Assembly: GCA_048886185.1 (NCBI GenBank)
Contig: JBHLKY010000020.1
Location: forward strand, 12,392 to 44,391
Length of the DNA stretch: 32,000 nt
Direction of reading: 5' to 3'
DNA from: Candidatus Hermodarchaeota archaeon
GTDB lineage: Archaea; Asgardarchaeota; Heimdallarchaeia; Hodarchaeales; Hodarchaeaceae
Within the stretch, counting starts at the first letter, position 1, and the number at the start of each line of letters is the position of its first letter. Made by a program: the position numbers and the translations under genes. Shown here one piece after another: positions 3,717 through 27,255 of this stretch. A model generated the notes under the pieces. That model was not told the origin of the DNA, searched no databases, and saw only the letters and a list, made by a program, of their open reading frames with translations.

Positions 3717-4125
3717 GATGGCGAAAATTTATTCCGATGAGGTCATGAAATTATTTATGAATCCAAAGAATATGGGAGAAATTGAAAATCCCAGTGGTCT
3801 TGGAAAAGTAGGAAATCCAGTTTGTGGAGACGTAATGTGGATTTATATTAAAGTTGATGACGCTACAGATGTGATAGAAGATATCAAAGTCAAAACTTTT
3901 GGATGCGTTGCTGCAATTGCCACAAGTTCAAAAACAACAGAAATGGCTAAAGGAAAAACTCTTAAGGAAGCCTATGCGATAACGAAGAAACAGGTTGCTG
4001 ATGATTTAGGGGGTTTACCAAAACAAAAAATGCATTGCTCAAATCTAGCTGTTGATGCACTTCAAAGAGCAATCGTTAATTATTTTGAGAAGAAAGGTAG
4101 ATCTATTGAAGAATTAGAGGGATAA
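3709..4125 (+). CDS. iscU: IscU/NifU-N Fe-S cluster scaffold
   Basis: All three Cys motifs are present: NPVCGD, FGC and HCSNLA. The start is either the ATG at 3709 or the ATG at 3718. Confidence 0.95.
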   Translation: MNKMAKIYSDEVMKLFMNPKNMGEIENPSGLGKVGNPVCGDVMWIYIKVDDATDVIEDIKVKTFGCVAAIATSSKTTEMAKGKTLKEAYAITKKQVADDLGGLPKQKMHCSNLAVDALQRAIVNYFEKKGRSIEELEG

Positions 4126-4134
4126 GAGAATTCA

Positions 4135-4383
4135 ATGAAAACGGAAGAACCTGACTTTTTAATTGATATCACAGGGTTAACCTGCCCAATTCCGCTGATT
4201 AAGGCACGAAGGGCAATAAAGAGCGCCAGAAAAGGTCAGAAAATCAAATTTGTGGGAACAATTGAGGAGGAAGTATCACGAAAGGAAATTCTTATAGCCA
4301 TTTCTAATCTAAATCAGCGTTTAATAGAAAATATAGACCAGATTGAAGAAAAAAGATGGTATATATTAATTGAAAAAAATTAA
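4135..4383 (+). CDS. tusA: TusA/SirA-family sulfur carrier
   Basis: IDITGLTCPIP matches the CPxP motif. 82 aa, starting 9 nt after iscU. Confidence 0.85.
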   Translation: MKTEEPDFLIDITGLTCPIPLIKARRAIKSARKGQKIKFVGTIEEEVSRKEILIAISNLNQRLIENIDQIEEKRWYILIEKN

Positions 4384-17880: not shown

Positions 17881-20331
17881 ATGGCCCCAATTCCTGATAT
17901 GCTATTTGGTTTACTGTTAATAGCTATCTCTCTTTTTATTATCATTGGATTAATCGCCTACTCGTTAATACAAGTGGTATTCTTAAGTAGGAAACGTTTT
18001 ATTCTTGAGCCTAAACCATATAAAGGGCAAGATACCGTTCTAAATGGTGCAGATCTATCAAGGGATATGACAGTAACTCAAGCAACAATGACTGGTGTTG
18101 GAGCTATGATTGGTGCAGGTATATTTGTACTTACTGGAATTGCCGCAGGAATTGCAGGTCCAGGATTATTGGTTGCTTTTGCTTTTAATGGATTAATTGC
18201 AACCTTAATTGCAATGGTTTATGCTGAACTTGGCTCTGCAATACCTGAAGCTGGTGGAGGCTACATTTGGGCACGCGCAGGTTTAGGGGAAACTCAAGGA
18301 TTCTATTCTGGATGGATGAGCTGGTTTGCAGCGGCTGTAGCAGGTTCATTATATGCACTCGGTTTTGGTGCGTATTTTGTTGCATTTCTTGTTAATCTAG
18401 GGATTAATATCCCTAATGAACATATATTTTTTGTAGAAAAGGGAATCGGGGTAACAGCTATCATTTTATTCATCCTCATCAATCAGTTTGGATCTTCGGT
18501 TATGGGAAAAGCAGAAACATGGATATCTGGATTAAAAGTATTAATTCTTGGCTTTTTTATCTTTACAGGATTAATAATTATGATTCTAAATCCTTCTCAA
18601 ACCTCATTAAACTTCGTAGATTTTTTTCCAAGAGGATTTTTTTCCATTTTCACCGCCATGGGATTTACTTTTATTGCATTTGAAGGATATGAAGTTGTAT
18701 GTCAAACTGGAGAGGAGATTTATGATCCAAAAACTAGTATCCCAAAATCTGTTCTTCTCTCAGTTTTAATAGTCATCCCTATCTATCTACTTGTAGGTAT
18801 GGTCTCTCTTGGAGCATTCGTAGTAGAAGGACAAACAAATTGGGAATTTTTAAGCGAAAACAAGGAATTAGGTCTATTATTTGCTGCTCAACAGATGATA
18901 CCTGGACTAGGATTGGTTGTTATTCTATTTGGAGGAATCTTATCAACATTATCAGCATTAAATGCAACTATTTATTCTTCCACTCGTGTAGCTTTTGCAC
19001 TAGCAAGAGACGGATCGTTACCACCCCAATTAGGAGCAGTTTCAAAGAAATGGCATACTCCAATAAATTCGATTTACACAACAGGGTTGGTAGTTATCAT
19101 CATGGCTATTATAATTCCTATTGAAGCTGTAGCGACCTCAGCTGACATAATGTTTATGATACTCTTCGGACAAGTCATGATTTCAGCCATTTTAATCCGA
19201 AAACGGGTGAGACTATCAAAAGAGAAGCTAGATTATGGCTACGAAACTCCACTATTCCCTTTGATTCCTCTTTTAGGTGGAATAGCTCTTTTAATCATCT
19301 TCATGTTCACATTATTCCTTCATTTTGAGGCATTTTTTACAACATTGATATGGCTATTGATTGGAACAGGACTCTATATTAGTTATGCTCGAAAAAGAAC
19401 CCCAATGCAAGCCCCTCAGAAATTAATAAAACATATCAGGCCCCGAGCTGATTATATACCTGAAGCATTTTTTACTACGGTATTGAATAATATCTTAGTT
19501 CCAGTAAGAGGGAAACCATTTGAATGGGATACACTTAGAATAGCGATACATATTGCGCATGAATTTGGACCAAAAGTGACGTTGTATCATTTTGGATACG
19601 AAAAAGAAGAATCATTTACTACTTATATAGAAGAATTGAAACGATTTAACCTATTATATGAATTGAAAATAGTTACTCCTTCCCAAAAAAAGATCTCAGC
19701 ACGCGATATCATTCAACATATGGTAGAGGTTGCAAGTACAGGGGAATACCAATTAGCGATCTTACCCTCCCCTCGGGAACGAAAAATTGGGGAAATTAGC
19801 ATTTCTCATAATGCTCTCAGAAAAATGCCTATACCAGGACTTCAAGTTTTTCCTAGTAAGACAGAGTCAATTGATAAAAAAGTCACATTTGAACATGTAG
19901 GGGCTTTAACTCCAGGTTCCAAACGTGATCCTTTCTTATTACAACTTGGGATTGCTATGGTTTCATCAACAAGAATTGCTGACTTAATCGCTTATCACTG
20001 GACTCATGTCCCTAAGTTAATCACACCTGAAGTAATGTCTGAAGCTCCTGGAGTTCAAGAAGATATTTCTATTTTTTTACATAATATTGGAGAAGCAATT
20101 CGAATGGGTATACCAATTGAGCAAAGACACATTTTAGGCCATGATTTTGTAAGATCAATAGCTGAAGTTGTCAAGAAAGACAAATTAGATTTGATTATTC
20201 TTGGATATGGTAAACCTCGACTAGGACGAAGACCATCGGAAAAATTGGTTCAAAAAATTGATTGTACAGCAGTTGTATTCCATGGAAGACCTTTTTACAA
20301 AATAAGAGAAGGATCAACACCCTCTTTTTGA
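17881..20331 (+). CDS. APC-superfamily amino acid permease with C-terminal USP-like domains
   Basis: GVGAMIGAGIF, YAELGSAIPEAGGGY, AFEGYE and FALARDG. The soluble tail has NILVPV and DLIILG..PSEKLV..AVVF, typical of USP folds. Confidence 0.88.
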   Translation: MAPIPDMLFGLLLIAISLFIIIGLIAYSLIQVVFLSRKRFILEPKPYKGQDTVLNGADLSRDMTVTQATMTGVGAMIGAGIFVLTGIAAGIAGPGLLVAFAFNGLIATLIAMVYAELGSAIPEAGGGYIWARAGLGETQGFYSGWMSWFAAAVAGSLYALGFGAYFVAFLVNLGINIPNEHIFFVEKGIGVTAIILFILINQFGSSVMGKAETWISGLKVLILGFFIFTGLIIMILNPSQTSLNFVDFFPRGFFSIFTAMGFTFIAFEGYEVVCQTGEEIYDPKTSIPKSVLLSVLIVIPIYLLVGMVSLGAFVVEGQTNWEFLSENKELGLLFAAQQMIPGLGLVVILFGGILSTLSALNATIYSSTRVAFALARDGSLPPQLGAVSKKWHTPINSIYTTGLVVIIMAIIIPIEAVATSADIMFMILFGQVMISAILIRKRVRLSKEKLDYGYETPLFPLIPLLGGIALLIIFMFTLFLHFEAFFTTLIWLLIGTGLYISYARKRTPMQAPQKLIKHIRPRADYIPEAFFTTVLNNILVPVRGKPFEWDTLRIAIHIAHEFGPKVTLYHFGYEKEESFTTYIEELKRFNLLYELKIVTPSQKKISARDIIQHMVEVASTGEYQLAILPSPRERKIGEISISHNALRKMPIPGLQVFPSKTESIDKKVTFEHVGALTPGSKRDPFLLQLGIAMVSSTRIADLIAYHWTHVPKLITPEVMSEAPGVQEDISIFLHNIGEAIRMGIPIEQRHILGHDFVRSIAEVVKKDKLDLIILGYGKPRLGRRPSEKLVQKIDCTAVVFHGRPFYKIREGSTPSF

Positions 20332-23179: not shown

Positions 23180-24469
23180 TCATATCCGTTCAATCACAGT
23201 GGCGATACCGACACCCCCACCACCACATAACGTCTGGATACCATATCGTTTCTTTTTATTAACTAAATAATGAACCATATCACTAAAATAGTGAACACCT
23301 GAAGATCCGATAGCATGACCAGTTGCTATCGCTCCACCATATGGATTAACACGGGGATCATCGAAAGGATAATTGAAGTGTTTAGCAAAAGCTAGACAAG
23401 GAGAAGCAAATGCCTCATTGGGTTCAATACAACCCATTTCAGCCATTGATAGATCACCAGCTCTTTTTAACGCTCGTTCTTGTGCAGGAATAGGCCCAGT
23501 CAGCATAAGCATAGGATCATCTCCCGCCAATGCAGTTGAAAGAATTTTCACCATTGGATTAATTCCTAAATCGTCCGCTTTCTCTCTTGACATTAGCATT
23601 ACAGCAGAAGCTCCATCTGTAATTTGCGAAGAGTTTCCGGCAGTTACTCTTCCATTTTCTGGACGGAAAACGGGGGGTAGGGATTGTATTTGGGCATAAG
23701 CTGTGTCAGGGTCATCAAGAGATATTGTACGAACTGTTTGGTCTTCTACTACCATTTTTGTTCCAAAAGAACCATCTGGATCTTCAATTTTAACTTCAAA
23801 AGGAACAACGCGTTTCTTATATGTTTCTTTGTCTCTCATTGCCTTCGTGGCCTTTTGATGTGACCATAAACCAAACTTATCCATATCCTCTCTTGAGATA
23901 TCATATTTATCAGCAACTAGTTCTGCAGACTCTCCTTGAACAAAGCTCATTCTAGATTGAAGTTCTTCCATCCGGGTATCAGACATATGACAATAAATGT
24001 TCTCAACAGGATACATGAATCCAACTTGAAAATCAATACCCATAGGATAATGTGTGAGGTTCTCAACCCCTGCAGCTATCATAATATCACCATCACCGAC
24101 TTTGATGGCGTTTGCACATGTATTAATTGCTTGTAATCCTGCGTTACAATATCTATTGACAGTTGCAGCGGCAACGATATCAGGGAGATTTTTTGCCATT
24201 AATTGAGCAATTCGACCGATATTTGCTCCTTGGTCTCCAATCTGAGTTAAGACACCCACATGAACATCCTCAATTTCATGAGGATCGAAGGAACTCGACT
24301 GTGATTGAACTCGATCAACAAGGATCTCTAAAACACCCGCTAACATATCTTGTGAAGACATATTTCGGTAATATCCTCCGTATTTATCCATTTGGGCCCT
24401 AGAGGATTTCCCCATTGGCAGCCGAATTGCATCAACAACAACACATTCTCTAAGCTCATTATTTCCCAT
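23180..24469 (-). CDS. Thiolase (acetyl-CoA C-acyltransferase)
   Basis: NRYC (nucleophile Cys), NEAF, GHAIG (His) and CGGGG (second Cys), plus TAGNSSQITDGA. Confidence 0.93.
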   Translation of the reverse strand: MGNNELRECVVVDAIRLPMGKSSRAQMDKYGGYYRNMSSQDMLAGVLEILVDRVQSQSSSFDPHEIEDVHVGVLTQIGDQGANIGRIAQLMAKNLPDIVAAATVNRYCNAGLQAINTCANAIKVGDGDIMIAAGVENLTHYPMGIDFQVGFMYPVENIYCHMSDTRMEELQSRMSFVQGESAELVADKYDISREDMDKFGLWSHQKATKAMRDKETYKKRVVPFEVKIEDPDGSFGTKMVVEDQTVRTISLDDPDTAYAQIQSLPPVFRPENGRVTAGNSSQITDGASAVMLMSREKADDLGINPMVKILSTALAGDDPMLMLTGPIPAQERALKRAGDLSMAEMGCIEPNEAFASPCLAFAKHFNYPFDDPRVNPYGGAIATGHAIGSSGVHYFSDMVHYLVNKKKRYGIQTLCGGGGVGIATVIERI

Positions 24470-24480
24470 AAAACTTCCTC

Positions 24481-24493
24481 AATTGAATCAATT
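24481..24493. promoter_or_regulatory. Palindromic operator-like site, copy 1 (AATTGAATCAATT)
   Basis: Perfect AATTGA-N-TCAATT palindrome directly next to the thiolase SD (GAGG, complement of 24477-24480). Confidence 0.55.
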
Positions 24494-24508
24494 TTGACGT
24501 TACTCTCT

Positions 24509-24521
24509 AATTGAGTCAATT
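24509..24521. promoter_or_regulatory. Palindromic operator-like site, copy 2 (AATTGAGTCAATT)
   Basis: The same palindrome, 28 nt from copy 1. Confidence 0.55.
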
Positions 24522-25028
24522 CTATTTATGTTTTTTCTCAACTACCCGAAAATAATTAAAAAGCAATTACTTTAAATTCACTTTTCTTTTTTCTTTCTCT
24601 TTGAAGAATTGTAATGTAGATAAAAAGGACTAGTATTTCCACTTAACTACAGAAATACATTAAGACTATAAGTTTTTTCCCTTTTTCTTTGTAAAAAAAA
24701 ACTATCAGAAAGATACAGAGTAAATATTATGATTTTGAGGGTAAGAACATGCTTGTTCAAGGAATCATTGAGATTATGCCATAGAAATTATAACATTAAT
24801 GAAATATATATTAGAATGTAATTCAGATTTTTTATTTCGTTCAGATTCTTGTTAGGATTTAAAGAATAAACAAGAAAAGCTTAAGCAAATGTTCTATAAT
24901 GGAGCTATTCGTATTTACGATTTCAGAGGGAAAGATTTAAATATTAGAAAATTGTGAAAATAAATGATTATATTTCCTTGAAAGAGGCAATTTAATCAGA
25001 AAATTTATTTGTAACAGAGGTGAATTTA

Positions 25029-25094
25029 ATGTCTGAAGAGAAGAAAAAAGAGTCAAAGATTCGAAAACCTCAGATTAAAAAACCTAAAAAGTAA
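25029..25094 (+). CDS. Candidate 21-aa Lys-rich microprotein MSEEKKKESKIRKPQIKKPKK
   Basis: ATG at 25029 and TAA at 25092-25094. GAGGTGA SD at 25017-25023, 5 nt before the ATG. It lies in an otherwise empty intergenic region. Confidence 0.55.
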   Translation: MSEEKKKESKIRKPQIKKPKK

Positions 25095-25147
25095 TTTTAA
25101 GTCAGCAGAATCTATAAATCTTACTTATCTTAAATTTTCATGGCATA

Positions 25148-25178
25148 ATTAGGAGGTGCGTGACACACACCTCCTAAT
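25148..25178. other. GC-rich hairpin (terminator or RNA element) containing SD/anti-SD sequences
   Basis: ATTAGGAGGTG (25148-25158) pairs perfectly with CACCTCCTAAT (25168-25178). A pyrimidine-rich tract follows on the + strand. Confidence 0.6.
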
Positions 25179-25250
25179 ACTTTATATTCTCTCTATATTT
25201 TAACAGTCAGATTACGATGGAGTTATTTTTCTTCTATGAAATAGTGAGGA

Positions 25251-25263
25251 AATTGACTCAATA
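25251..25263. promoter_or_regulatory. Palindromic operator-like site, copy 3 (AATTGACTCAATA)
   Basis: One mismatch to the AATTGA-N-TCAATT palindrome, about 155 nt upstream of the GNAT-OB gene. Confidence 0.4.
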
Positions 25264-25417
25264 AACTAATTAATAATAACTTTGTTGTTTTTATTGACAT
25301 CAGCATAATGTAGTGAACTACTCTTACTCACTCATCATTGAGTCTACGATCACTTCTTCCCCAAATAATAGTTATATGAGCAATCCAGATTAATGAATTG
25401 ACGATTTGGAATAGAAT

Positions 25418-26203
25418 ATGAAAATGATTAAAATCAGTATTGCACGAGCCATGAAAAAAGATGCAGAGAAGCTCACGTCAATATCTAAAAGAGCTTTTGA
25501 CAGTGATATTGAAGTAGGGGCACCTGGGCCTGGAGGCCCACCATGGTATGACTCCCCATCATTTCACCAACGATTTATGAAATTCATGGATTACTATAAA
25601 ATTCTCCTAGATGAGAATATCGTTGGTGGTATTTTTTCTCGAGGGGGAAAACAACACCGAGTGCTAGAAGGAATTTTCGTTGATCCTCCTTGCCACAACC
25701 AAGGTATTGCTTCTCGAGCTATGGAATTGCTTTGGGAGATGTATCCTGAAGTCCAACTTTGGACTTTAGGAACTCCTGAGTGGAATGTGAGAACAAGACA
25801 CTTTTATGAGAAGTTAGGATTTATACAGGTTGGATGGGAAAAGGGAAATCCTACTTGGAGGGGAATCTGGTATCAAAAAGTAATGGACCCATCAAGACCT
25901 TACCCGATGATGAAAGTAGGAGAGCTTAGAGATGGATTGAAAGAAGTTACTGTAGAGGGAGTTATTCATACAATATCCTCACCTAGGGAAGTGAGATCCC
26001 GATCTTCAGGAAAAGTACTTTCTGTGGCTAATGCTGAACTTGGTGATTCTACTGGAAAAATCATTTTAATACTATGGAATGAACAGATTTCACAAGTGAA
26101 AACCGATGACAGAGTGAGAATTGAATTTGGTAACATAAAATCATACAGGGGAGTAAATCAACTAAACATAGGCTGGACTGGAAGACTCATAATATTGGTT
26201 TGA
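25418..26203 (+). CDS. GNAT N-acetyltransferase fused to a C-terminal SSB/RPA-type OB fold
   Basis: N-terminal part: FVDPPCHNQGIAS (acetyl-CoA motif A) and N...HFYEKLGF. C-terminal ~98 aa: KVGEL...VTVEG...LGDSTGKIILILWNEQ...RIEFGNIKSYRGVNQLNIG, the pattern of archaeal SSB OB folds. Confidence 0.85.
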   Translation: MKMIKISIARAMKKDAEKLTSISKRAFDSDIEVGAPGPGGPPWYDSPSFHQRFMKFMDYYKILLDENIVGGIFSRGGKQHRVLEGIFVDPPCHNQGIASRAMELLWEMYPEVQLWTLGTPEWNVRTRHFYEKLGFIQVGWEKGNPTWRGIWYQKVMDPSRPYPMMKVGELRDGLKEVTVEGVIHTISSPREVRSRSSGKVLSVANAELGDSTGKIILILWNEQISQVKTDDRVRIEFGNIKSYRGVNQLNIGWTGRLIILV

Positions 26204-26250
26204 TGAAAACAAATAGTGAGGGATCAATATATTGGAGTCTTTGTTTTCCT

Positions 26251-27255
26251 TTATTTCTTCCAATCGAAAATTACACCGATATACTCATCCTTATTATTTT
26301 TTAATCCCTCATATGCTTCTTTACACTTCGAGGGGGATAATTTATGAGTGATAAGACTAGAAACATTCAATTTTTTATCTTCTAATAATTGAAAGATAAT
26401 TTCTAAATTTCTTTCAATAGAGTGTTTTGATACTGAATTTCTATTAATAGGAAAACGCCATTCAAGTGCTCCCTTAATCGTAATACATCCGTGTGAAATG
26501 AGATGACTTCGGTTGAGAAATTCTGTTAAATTACTTTGATATTCACCCCTTGGACTTCCAAGCAGAATAAGTTCTCCTAATTCACCAGCACAATTAATTG
26601 CCTGTTCAGCTACCGATGGGATACCAGTCGCTTCAATTACTGACCTACATTTTTCCCCATTAGTAATAGCAAATATTCTATCATTAATATTAACTTCCAA
26701 GGGATTAATAACATGCTTTATTCCACACATTTTAGCTAAGTCTAGTCTTGACTTGGAAATATCAATTCCTATTACTTCACAGCCACAAAGAGTAAAAAAT
26801 TGAGCGGATAAATTTCCAACGAGTCCTAAACCGAATACTGAAATATAATCACCAAGCTCAGCCTGTGAAACGCGATTCGCAGTGATTGAAACCGCAGCTA
26901 TCCTAGATACAACAGCATCTAGACTACTTAAAGTGTCTGGTACTGGAAGAGTGAGTACTGAGGTTAACCCATGGCTAGCATGTTTACCAAAGGTGAAAAC
27001 ACGATCCCCTGATTTAAAGTGTCTGATTGACTTACCAATCGCAATCACTTCTCCAACGGATCCATATCCTGGTACAAATGGTAAAGAAGCCCATGATTCA
27101 ATACCCTCAAGTATTGCTAGCTCAGTCCCAGCGCTTATAATACTGAATTCTGTTTCTATGGCAATGTCATTATTCCCCAGATTCCTGAAATTAAACTCAA
27201 ATTCTTCTAGTTTGACTACACCTGGTGAGGAAATAATGATCTGTTGAGCTTTCAT
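26251..27255 (-). CDS. MDR-family dehydrogenase, subgroup lacking the usual catalytic-Zn motifs (BchC/YcjQ-like)
   Basis: ISAGTE and PGYGSVGEV replace the usual C.. and GHE motifs. Rossmann motif VFGLGLVG and VIEATG are present. Confidence 0.85.
   Translation of the reverse strand: MKAQQIIISSPGVVKLEEFEFNFRNLGNNDIAIETEFSIISAGTELAILEGIESWASLPFVPGYGSVGEVIAIGKSIRHFKSGDRVFTFGKHASHGLTSVLTLPVPDTLSSLDAVVSRIAAVSITANRVSQAELGDYISVFGLGLVGNLSAQFFTLCGCEVIGIDISKSRLDLAKMCGIKHVINPLEVNINDRIFAITNGEKCRSVIEATGIPSVAEQAINCAGELGELILLGSPRGEYQSNLTEFLNRSHLISHGCITIKGALEWRFPINRNSVSKHSIERNLEIIFQLLEDKKLNVSSLITHKLSPSKCKEAYEGLKNNKDEYIGVIFDWKK

Follow-up and report, generated by a model that had tools for sequence, protein, structure and literature searches.

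The window analysed here is a stretch of 32,000 nucleotides (nt) of contig JBHLKY010000020.1, from a Candidatus Hermodarchaeota archaeon. On its forward strand, at 25418..26203, lies a single open reading frame (ORF) that joins a GNAT acetyltransferase domain, through a short linker, to an OB fold of the kind found in single-stranded DNA-binding proteins (SSB). We refer to it as the GNAT-OB gene. It runs without interruption for 261 amino acids (aa) plus stop, and all residue numbers below refer to this product; the real start may be the third codon (ATG at 25424), which is where the closest homologues begin. The features of the gene, with model confidence given as predicted local distance difference test (pLDDT), are the following:

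25418..26203, + strand: whole GNAT-OB gene, an ORF of 261 aa plus stop
25433..25882, + strand: GNAT acetyltransferase domain, aa 6-155, from Pfam PF00583, PF13508 and PF13673 and from VIA-align (Z 18.3 to 3fnc and Ard1 4pv6, model range 2-160)
25517..25555, + strand: alpha1-alpha2 loop signature with the subfamily consensus G-G-P-P-G-Y-D-S (W43 for G in the window copy), the presumed acceptor-binding loop
25694..25711, + strand: motif A, the acetyl-CoA pyrophosphate loop, H93-N-Q-G96-I-A98
25760..25822, + strand: beta5-alpha4 signature W-T-L-G-T-P-E-W-N-x-R-T-x-x-F-Y-E-K-L-G-F, which contains W115, N123, R125 and Y130
25883..25906, + strand: linker MDPSRPYP, aa 156-163, modelled as ordered (pLDDT 93-94)
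25907..25912, + strand: tandem ATG codons, M164 and M165, at the domain boundary
25907..26200, + strand: SSB-type OB fold, aa 164-261, without a C-terminal tail (PF21473 and PF01336; PRK06461 models; PDB 1o7i, 2mna and 7wcg; Foldseek 1o7i)
25991..26011, + strand: V192 (I30 of the Sulfolobus solfataricus SSB, SsoSSB) and the basic L12 loop R-S-R-S-S-G
26075..26077, + strand: codon of W220 (SsoSSB W56, hSSB1 W55), from the HMMER and family alignments
26132..26134, + strand: codon of N239 (SsoSSB W75, hSSB1 Y74), from the same alignments
26144..26146, + strand: codon of Y243 (SsoSSB F79, hSSB1 F78), from the same alignments
26183..26200, + strand: C-terminal strand R-L-I-I-L-V, aa 256-261, predicted antiparallel partner of GNAT beta6 (aa 137-142)

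Both halves are recognised by curated profiles. PF00583 matches aa 57-135 with an expectation value (E) of 2.7e-11 and 44.2 bits, against a cut-off of 20.7, and PF13508 and PF13673 likewise score above their curated Pfam cut-offs. The OB half is matched, also above the curated cut-offs, by PF01336 (aa 177-249, E 1.8e-7) and by PF21473, Ssb-like_OB (aa 184-257, E 5.5e-7, 30.1 bits against 24). The best NCBIfam matches of this half are crenarchaeal-type SSB models (PRK06461; NF005049, E 3e-14), with the whole protein, at 53.3 bits, below the NF005049 equivalog cut-off of 188 bits, and the best PDB sequence matches are the SsoSSB entries 2mna, 1o7i and 7wcg (E 1e-6, aa 166-254). In the HMMER alignment SsoSSB I30, W56, W75 and F79 correspond to V192, W220, N239 and Y243, so that the SsoSSB stacking trio (W56, W75 and F79) is only partly kept, its middle aromatic being lost. 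The acidic flexible tail of SSB proteins is absent, as the protein stops at the final OB strand, at residue 261. The original prediction, made from the letters of the window, had described the uninterrupted frame of GNAT, linker and SSB-type OB fold, the place of the linker and of the tandem ATGs, the Trp of the LW pair and the aromatic of Y-x-G as kept, and the acidic tail as missing; the ORF reading, Pfam and the alignments to PDB entries and SsoSSB bear all of this out.

An AlphaFold2 (AF2) model of the whole chain, built on 28 homologues, has a mean pLDDT of 91.6 and a predicted template modelling score (pTM) of 0.86. Modelled and profiled half by half, the C-terminal domain does come out as the OB fold that had been proposed: Foldseek superposes it on SsoSSB 1o7i with a root-mean-square deviation (rmsd) of 1.7 Å over 99 columns (TM 0.76 on the target), P. 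abyssi RPA is also a structural match, and DSSP assigns the OB strands plus a helix at 222-226, the arrangement of a single OB barrel with a helix (beta3/beta4). For the GNAT half VIA-align gives Z 18.3 and an rmsd of 2.5-2.6 Å over 145-153 residues to 3fnc and Ard1 4pv6, Z 17.9-18.0 to RimI and Z 17.4 to the canavanine NAT 8osp; Pfam scores, AF2 model and VIA-align agree on a GNAT fold. Among the Foldseek and VIA-align matches listed, no solved structure spans both domains, and the VIA-align ranges end by about residue 174.

The fusion is widespread in archaea. A homologue search over 5.8 billion proteins returned 574 homologues of near-equal length, far more than chance would give. Of the best 120, almost all have 255-270 aa and the same Pfam pair; they come from Hodarchaeota/Heimdallarchaeota (Hod/Heimdall; identity up to 80%), Bathyarchaeota, Theionarchaea and Methanofastidiosia, and those that are named carry merely the annotation 'GNAT family N-acetyltransferase'. 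At least 190 non-redundant proteins of Hod/Heimdall, Thorarchaeia, Bathyarchaeia, Theionarchaea and Methanofastidiosia have the GNAT-OB architecture, and the residue statistics below were taken over 190 such proteins. Species-representative genomes hold 80 fused loci, in Hod/Heimdall, Thorarchaeia, Bathyarchaeia and Theionarchaea, and the Atlas has three clusters with the fusion, archaeal without exception. An assembly artefact or frameshift at the junction was considered and is ruled out by the hundreds of homologues and by an independent in-frame contig: a Logan contig of 734 nt from an estuary metagenome spans 25319-26049 with 29 substitutions and 0 gaps, so that a second strain also has an in-frame junction. 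The same two-domain architecture, when looked for elsewhere, is thus not specific to this assembly.

The fusion tree has four groups. One Hod/Heimdall clade contains the window copy, a divergent Hod clade contains a second copy from the same genome, and the other two groups are made of Bathyarchaeia plus Theionarchaea and of Bathyarchaeia plus Thorarchaeia. Two fused loci carry bacterial labels (L027, DATLAV010000029.1, binned as Patescibacteria, and L036, DATKWN010000031.1, binned as Krumholzibacteriaceae); their fusions nest within Bathyarchaeia, L036 is near-identical to L041 and L042, and by their placement both are probably misbinned archaeal contigs. The fusion proteins of L020 (metagenome-assembled genome of Thorarchaeota TM1M.79) and L021 (Heimdallarchaeota TM2S.58) are identical and have common neighbours, and at least one of these two taxonomic labels is probably wrong.

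The two halves are under similar purifying selection. Against the four closest relatives, the ratio of nonsynonymous to synonymous substitution rates (dN/dS) is 0.10-0.16 for the GNAT half and 0.12-0.17 for the OB half, and the mean pairwise identity over the 190 proteins is 56% and 54%, respectively, with the linker less conserved than the domains, at 31%. The gene is accessory: of 301 sampled Asgard genomes 63 have the fusion, with 13 of 21 in the window's own family, 38 of 77 and 9 of 19 in two others and 2 of 69 in a fourth, and in this sample it is absent from the 26 other Asgard families searched. Three Asgard copies have in-frame stops, TGA and/or TAG (G159:C330:7181-7840, G097:C78:13788-14555 and G128:C13:234446-235201); they may be pseudogenes or assembly errors, and would suit an accessory gene that is sometimes lost. 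We found no paper that describes the GNAT-OB architecture, in agreement with the earlier statement that no characterised protein was known to have it; it is not mentioned in a 2026 preprint on Asgard histone acetylation or in one on Asgard structural clustering, and the databases name these proteins by domain only. The architecture is new as a combination, GNAT and SSB-type OB domains each being well known.

Residue conservation points to working parts in both domains. In the OB half W220 is invariant (190/190), position 243 is always aromatic (Y in 147, F in 43), V192 is found in 188 of the 190 proteins, and in the L12 loop S194 is found in 181 and R195 in 160, with K in another 19. Position 239 is Tyr in 165 proteins, His in 8, Phe in 6 and Asn in only 4, so that Asn239 is an oddity of the window copy. 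The loss of the second stacking Trp to Asn, which had been read from this copy, is thus real in the window and is not a trait of the family, which has Tyr. The family pattern W-Y-Y/F equals the stacking set of hSSB1, W55/Y74/F78 (PMC6451162). In the GNAT half motif A is present, with G96 in 187 proteins and, at its first position, His in 127 as a variant of the usual Q/R. Y130 (184/190) and E84 (171/190) are, by position, the presumed general acid and general base. W115, N123, R125, D30 and P41 are each found in all 190; in the alpha1-alpha2 loop D30, P41, Y44 and D45 are invariant or nearly so, and E121, near the presumed acceptor site, is invariant as well. By these residues the GNAT half seems catalytically intact. 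The halves differ in charge, the OB half being basic (median isoelectric point, pI, 9.6; net +3) and the GNAT half acidic (median pI 5.2; net -5).

Besides the window copy, the genome (4.84 Mb, 96% complete) carries another GNAT-OB gene, a lone GNAT relative, three unfused Ssb-like OB genes and one RPA-like gene; since free Ssb-like and RPA-like genes exist, the fused OB is not the main SSB of the cell. The second GNAT-OB gene (G000:C4:128348-129115; L006:1489-2280) is 47% identical to the first and sits on a long branch in the separate Hod clade; at position 239 it carries Lys, and K-L-Q replaces the R-S-R loop. The OB fold of this copy may have drifted further from nucleic-acid binding, and the window copy, with Asn239, may be a weaker binder than typical members of the family.

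The domains are predicted to dock rigidly through a defined interface rather than to swing on a tether. When aa 1-160 and aa 164-261 were folded as separate chains, together with three controls, the GNAT/OB interface had an ipSAE score of 0.71, whereas the best control had 0.00; this level was attained by 58 of 80 solved complexes and by 2 of 110 mismatched pairs, counts that apply only roughly because the halves were folded with an alignment of our own. The runs agreed in at least 97% of the contacts, with partner pLDDT of at least 89. On the GNAT side the predicted interface comprises residues 75-77, 80, 82, 114, 116, 137-142 and 151, and on the OB side 164, 176, 178, 222-223, 226, 234, 236-237, 254 and 256-261. 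Because residues 192, 220, 239 and 243 are not among them, the canonical binding face of the OB fold is probably free in the model. A flexibly tethered acetyltransferase, as first envisaged, does not agree with this docking or with the ordered linker. We know of no solved complex that resembles the predicted one.

The closest free relatives of the fused OB fold are proteins of 96 aa from Bathyarchaeota, 50-56% identical to it. At six loci (L095-L100, gene at about 4001-4312) such a free OB gene, coding for 96-103 aa, is convergent with FEN1, and Orc1/Cdc6 or the small subunit of PolD lies within about 4 kb of it. These proteins are candidate tail-less mini-SSBs in replication-gene neighbourhoods. 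In the OB tree a single branch, with an SH-aLRT support of 97.6, divides all 45 free from all 74 fused OB domains, a split that one fusion event, or one fission, could explain. Because its free sisters adjoin FEN1, Orc1/Cdc6 and PolD, the fused OB would be by descent a replication-type binder of single-stranded DNA (ssDNA).

The GNAT half extends well beyond the fusion. Used alone as a query, with a threshold of E 1e-3, it retrieved 803 cluster representatives, of which many are lone proteins of 150-165 aa and some are bacterial. The G-G-P-P-G-Y-D loop and the T-P-x-W-N-x-R...F-Y-E-K motif occur in lone, pentapeptide-fused and OB-fused members alike, and by its motifs the GNAT half is part of a distinct subfamily, defined by this loop and by T-P-x-W-N-x-R-x-x-x-F-Y-E-K. 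C-terminal pentapeptide repeats, with a weak likeness to Qnr/MfpA, are found in six of ten longer relatives (P0153, P0186, P0204, P0230, P0250 and P0253). The subfamily profile reaches PaiA at 9e-11, RimI at 5e-10, the polyamine acetyltransferase DpA at 6e-9 and NatA-like chains at 1e-8, and with the PaiA-type equivalog NF053587 (SpmdActasePaiA) the protein reaches 11.8 of the 250 bits required. A substrate class taken from the fold neighbours was considered and rejected, since protein and small-molecule acetyltransferases tie there and take turns among the best profile matches.

Loci of lone GNATs were collected with a DNA pattern of the two motifs over species-representative genomes, which gave 61 loci in Chloroflexota, Actinomycetota, Clostridia, Kiritimatiellia, Spirochaetes and Thorarchaeota, 59 of them analysable. 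An AlkD-type gene lies directly downstream, often overlapping, in nine of the 59, a raw count; all nine are from Actinomycetota (L109, L112, L121, L126, L142, L154, L156, L159 and L160). UvrB is directly upstream in four, from Chloroflexota (L106, L128, L147 and L148), a GyrI-like/Cass2 gene is adjacent in three and a WYL/PafC-type regulator is nearby in four, and in an additional locus, from a metagenome, a GyrI-like gene and a WYL regulator occur together. In the genome of the window, the lone GNAT (G000:C40; L007:602-1474 and 1480-1986) follows by 3 nt an ArsR-type helix-turn-helix (HTH) gene fused to a GyrI-like/Cass2 domain, in what looks like a pair of drug-sensing regulator and enzyme. 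Resistance to DNA-alkylating natural products is known to involve AlkD-like glycosylases together with GyrI-like hydrolases (PMC9854587), and the contexts of the lone GNATs are a lead towards DNA-damage or genotoxin protection. This GNAT recurs next to modules concerned with DNA damage, with drugs that target DNA or with DNA as such. Unusually long ORFs (585-757 aa) that surround some lone GNATs were examined as possible fusions and rejected as 5' over-extensions in high-GC genomes.

The fused gene itself has a plainer setting. In the window it is flanked by thiolase and Zn-dehydrogenase genes on the opposite strand, the downstream Zn-dehydrogenase being convergent with it, and it is best explained as monocistronic. 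ORF clustering of 82 fused loci found PEMT/ICMT (13 loci) and MFS transporters (12) as the commonest neighbours, followed by ABC proteins, aldo-keto reductases, short-chain dehydrogenases/reductases (SDR) and HTH regulators, a generic set of redox and transport genes; with the top clusters in 13 and 12 of 82 loci, a conserved neighbourhood was rejected. The window has no tRNA gene or Rfam family, PADLOC finds no defence-protein family at E 0.01 or better, and the PHROGs matches are to generic acetyltransferase families only. The 948 nt before the gene (24470-25417) are AT-rich, with 27% GC against 34.5% for the window, and contain no ORF of at least 40 aa; about 1.16 kb upstream of the second copy (L006) are likewise free of ORFs of at least 80 aa. 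One part of this stretch is conserved:

25263..25343, + strand: conserved block (about 80 nt) shared with the closest relatives and lying 75-155 nt 5' of the start

This block has 80% identity to L018 and 73% to L017, is the sole conserved part of the 948 nt and is possibly a promoter or regulatory region. As a structured RNA it yields just two short hairpins, with 0 compensatory pairs and -3.1 kcal/mol, and the 948-nt stretch has short inverted repeats without covariation. Scans of 24400-26400 with sigma-70 and terminator models, which are not archaeal, gave sites no more frequent than in shuffled sequence. Among the sequencing runs listed, no RNA run holds the sequence. Elsewhere in the window, at 17881-20331 on the + strand, an ORF of 816 aa couples an amino-acid permease to a universal-stress-protein (Usp) domain at the C terminus.

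Our best explanation, to which we give a probability of roughly 0.55, is that the GNAT-OB protein is an accessory two-domain enzyme whose OB fold sits on single-stranded nucleic acid and whose GNAT domain acetylates a cationic amine there. With its beta6 edge and the beginning of beta4/beta5, the GNAT domain would dock onto a basic OB fold of the mini-SSB type, itself likely descended from, or of single origin with, the free 96-aa OB proteins of replication-gene neighbourhoods. The face formed by V192, W220, position 239, Y243 and the basic L12 loop would most likely bind single-stranded nucleic acid, ssDNA by ancestry and possibly RNA; the link to single-stranded nucleic acid that had been suggested at the outset is the natural reading of an OB fold of SsoSSB/hSSB1 type whose stacking residues are conserved in the alignment of the family. 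Through this binding the acidic GNAT domain would come to lie beside the nucleic acid, or might be activated there, and would move the acetyl group from acetyl-CoA to the amine. As acceptor, our tentative first choice, at somewhat less than even odds, is a small cationic molecule that binds DNA: a polyamine, or else a genotoxin or antibiotic that bears an amine. It is favoured because the acceptor signature is common to lone bacterial members that lie beside drug-binding and repair genes, and because the fused loci resemble accessory detoxification and transport neighbourhoods. The narrower proposal of a detoxifying acetyltransferase, anchored or switched by ssDNA and N-acetylating an amine-bearing DNA-binding toxin or polyamine on the nucleic acid, is speculative and on balance unlikely. 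Here the OB fold would bind exposed ssDNA, a universal signal of damage, and the rigid interface would position or activate the GNAT domain.

Several observations weigh against an enzyme that acts at single-stranded nucleic acid on a cationic amine. No DNA-repair or replication neighbour is common to the 82 fused loci, and just one of them has an AlkD-type gene. The DNA-damage theme is lineage-specific synteny of lone bacterial relatives, 35-45% identical, and reflects few independent events. Similarity does not reveal the class of acceptor, because Ard1, RimI and Naa50 tie with PaiA, 8osp and DpA. The Asn239 of the window copy and the Lys239 of its paralogue would mean that nucleic-acid binding is possibly weakened in this organism, and SSB-type OB folds also act on RNA and bind it (PMC10684826), and bind proteins.

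The nearest competitor, possible if doubtful, is a protein acetyltransferase that the OB fold parks on ssDNA or RNA, where basic bound proteins, such as SSB/RPA, Alba, histones or repair factors, would be acetylated at lysines or N-termini and so be tuned in affinity or turnover. The retained ssDNA-binding residues, an acidic GNAT domain suited to basic protein substrates, top fold neighbours that include Ard1, RimI and NatA/Naa50, and a genome whose free SSB-like and RPA-like genes offer targets all speak for it, as does the precedent of hSSB1, whose acetylation at K94 by p300 is documented (PMC6451162). The pentapeptide-repeat fusion, whose similarity to Qnr/MfpA is weak, could likewise recruit the same GNAT to DNA-binding proteins. 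The pentapeptide repeats of Qnr and MfpA are DNA mimics. However, lone bacterial, pentapeptide-fused and archaeal OB-fused members have the same acceptor loop, and since the ssDNA-bound proteins of bacteria and archaea differ, it is difficult to think of one particular protein that all could target; no gene for a candidate substrate is conserved as a neighbour, and lone relatives adjoin drug-binding GyrI-like genes. Of the two acceptors proposed originally, a nucleic-acid-bound protein thus stays a candidate, with a cationic small molecule at least as likely in view of the lone-GNAT contexts. The other, the nucleic acid itself, fares worse. An OB fold that binds tRNA, other RNA or DNA, next to a GNAT that acetylates an aminoacyl-tRNA amine, as TacT, AtaT and KacT do, or an exocyclic base amine, could appeal to the match to PF01336, an OB model of the tRNA anticodon type (E 1.8e-7), and to the KacT/AtaT-like chains that the subfamily profile reaches at E 3.5e-5 to 4.6e-4. 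Yet SSB-type models outscore the anticodon-binding type, the closest free OB relatives stand among replication genes, and the toxins score far below PaiA, RimI and 3fnc (KacT 3.5e-5 against PaiA 9e-11). There is no antitoxin-like neighbour, with an ORF-free upstream stretch and a convergent dehydrogenase downstream, and no helicase or tRNA-binding module as in TmcA/NAT10. D30, D45 and E121 around the presumed acceptor site of a GNAT half with pI 5.2, whose invariant acceptor-loop residues are acidic or aromatic, are unfavourable to a polyanion. Because of these acidic surroundings, the missing antitoxin and the missing tRNA-handling module, we regard acetylation of nucleic acid as highly improbable.

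Two further alternatives concern the OB half. It might no longer bind nucleic acid in the window copy and serve as a structural or regulatory appendage that stabilises the beta6 edge, blocks dimerisation or takes another ligand. The replacement of Tyr by N239 here and by K239 in the paralogue, which also lacks the R-S-R loop, the predicted welding of the OB to the GNAT through strand pairing and the lack of nucleic-acid-related neighbours would suit an appendage, but the window copy keeps W220, Y243, V192 and the basic R-S-R loop, the dN/dS of its OB half indicates continued constraint, and hSSB1 and SsoSSB use several aromatics, so that by analogy the loss of one would usually weaken rather than abolish binding. 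We consider an appendage very unlikely. The other alternative, that translation also starts inside the gene at 25907 and yields a free SSB of 98 aa besides the fusion protein, had been raised on account of the tandem ATGs, which stand exactly at the domain boundary, and free 96-aa relatives do exist as separate genes elsewhere. The pair is not a family feature, however: M164 is found in 126 and M165 in 32 of the 190 proteins, many members having L, I, R, F or P there, and for this lack of conservation the internal start is unsupported. By eye no Shine-Dalgarno-like or TATA-like motif stands just upstream of 25907, and the predicted interface packs the last strand and further OB residues against the GNAT domain. 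Two short 'free' matches with 70% identity lie on contigs of only 586 and 863 nt and are therefore probably fragments of fused genes. An internal start has, in our judgement, hardly any likelihood.

If the OB fold does direct acetylation to single-stranded nucleic acid, the GNAT-OB proteins would be a simple prokaryotic form of nucleic-acid-guided acetylation, in a fusion kept under purifying selection across the main sediment archaeal lineages. With chromatin or replication proteins as targets, this would bear on the origin of eukaryote-style regulation, the Asgard archaea being relatives of eukaryotes; with DNA-bound toxins or polyamines, it would amount to a novel way of protecting the genome. 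The detoxifying proposal, if true, would make the fusion an archaeal, protein-level counterpart of the bacterial pairings of GNATs with ssDNA-sensing WYL regulators, GyrI-like proteins, AlkD, UvrB and Qnr-like repeats, and would define a previously unrecognised family of genome-protection acetyltransferases across Bacteria and Archaea. The pairings with AlkD, GyrI-like, UvrB, WYL and pentapeptide-repeat partners give a testable lead for many proteins annotated as 'GNAT family N-acetyltransferase'.

Among known systems, TmcA/NAT10 and the toxins TacT, AtaT and KacT act on RNA. Their similarity to the GNAT-OB protein is much weaker than that of PaiA or RimI; unlike TmcA/NAT10, it has no helicase/ATPase or tRNA-binding module, with only GNAT and OB in its 261 aa, and unlike the toxins it has no antitoxin partner. 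The small GNATs PaiA (1tiq), 3fnc, 8osp, RimI (9mto and 5isv) and Ard1 (4pv6) are closer, with the same fold (VIA-align Z 17-18), profile E values of 1e-10 to 6e-8, motif A and the motif-B Tyr, but they are only 12-21% identical and have neither the G-G-P-P-G-Y-D loop nor an OB domain. GNAT-OB reaches no NCBIfam equivalog, and specificity is not transferable from these enzymes because their substrates span polyamines, amino acids and protein N-termini. The uncharacterised GNAT-pentapeptide fusions have the same subfamily signature, 34-44% identity and a C-terminal addition at the same position, which in them is a Qnr/MfpA-like pentapeptide beta-helix instead of an OB fold. SsoSSB (1o7i, 2mna and 7wcg) and hSSB1 share with the OB half a single OB fold of PF21473 (rmsd 1.7-2.0 Å), the stacking positions, the D-x-T-G turn and the Q-L-N motif. 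In contrast, identity to them is about 27%, and the GNAT-OB protein lacks their flexible acidic C-terminal tail, carries its OB fold joined to an enzyme domain onto which it is predicted to dock, has Asn instead of the middle aromatic in the window copy and falls far under the NCBIfam SSB equivalog cut-off (53 against 188 bits). The free OB proteins of Bathyarchaeia (for example P0293, 'DNA-binding protein' at NCBI), uncharacterised products of stand-alone genes, differ in their near-neutral pI of about 6.3, against 9.6 for the fused OB, and resemble the fused domain in P-R-E-V-R-S-R, L-V-L-W-N-E-Q, E-N-G-Y and Q-L-N-V-G and in ending, as it does, without a tail.

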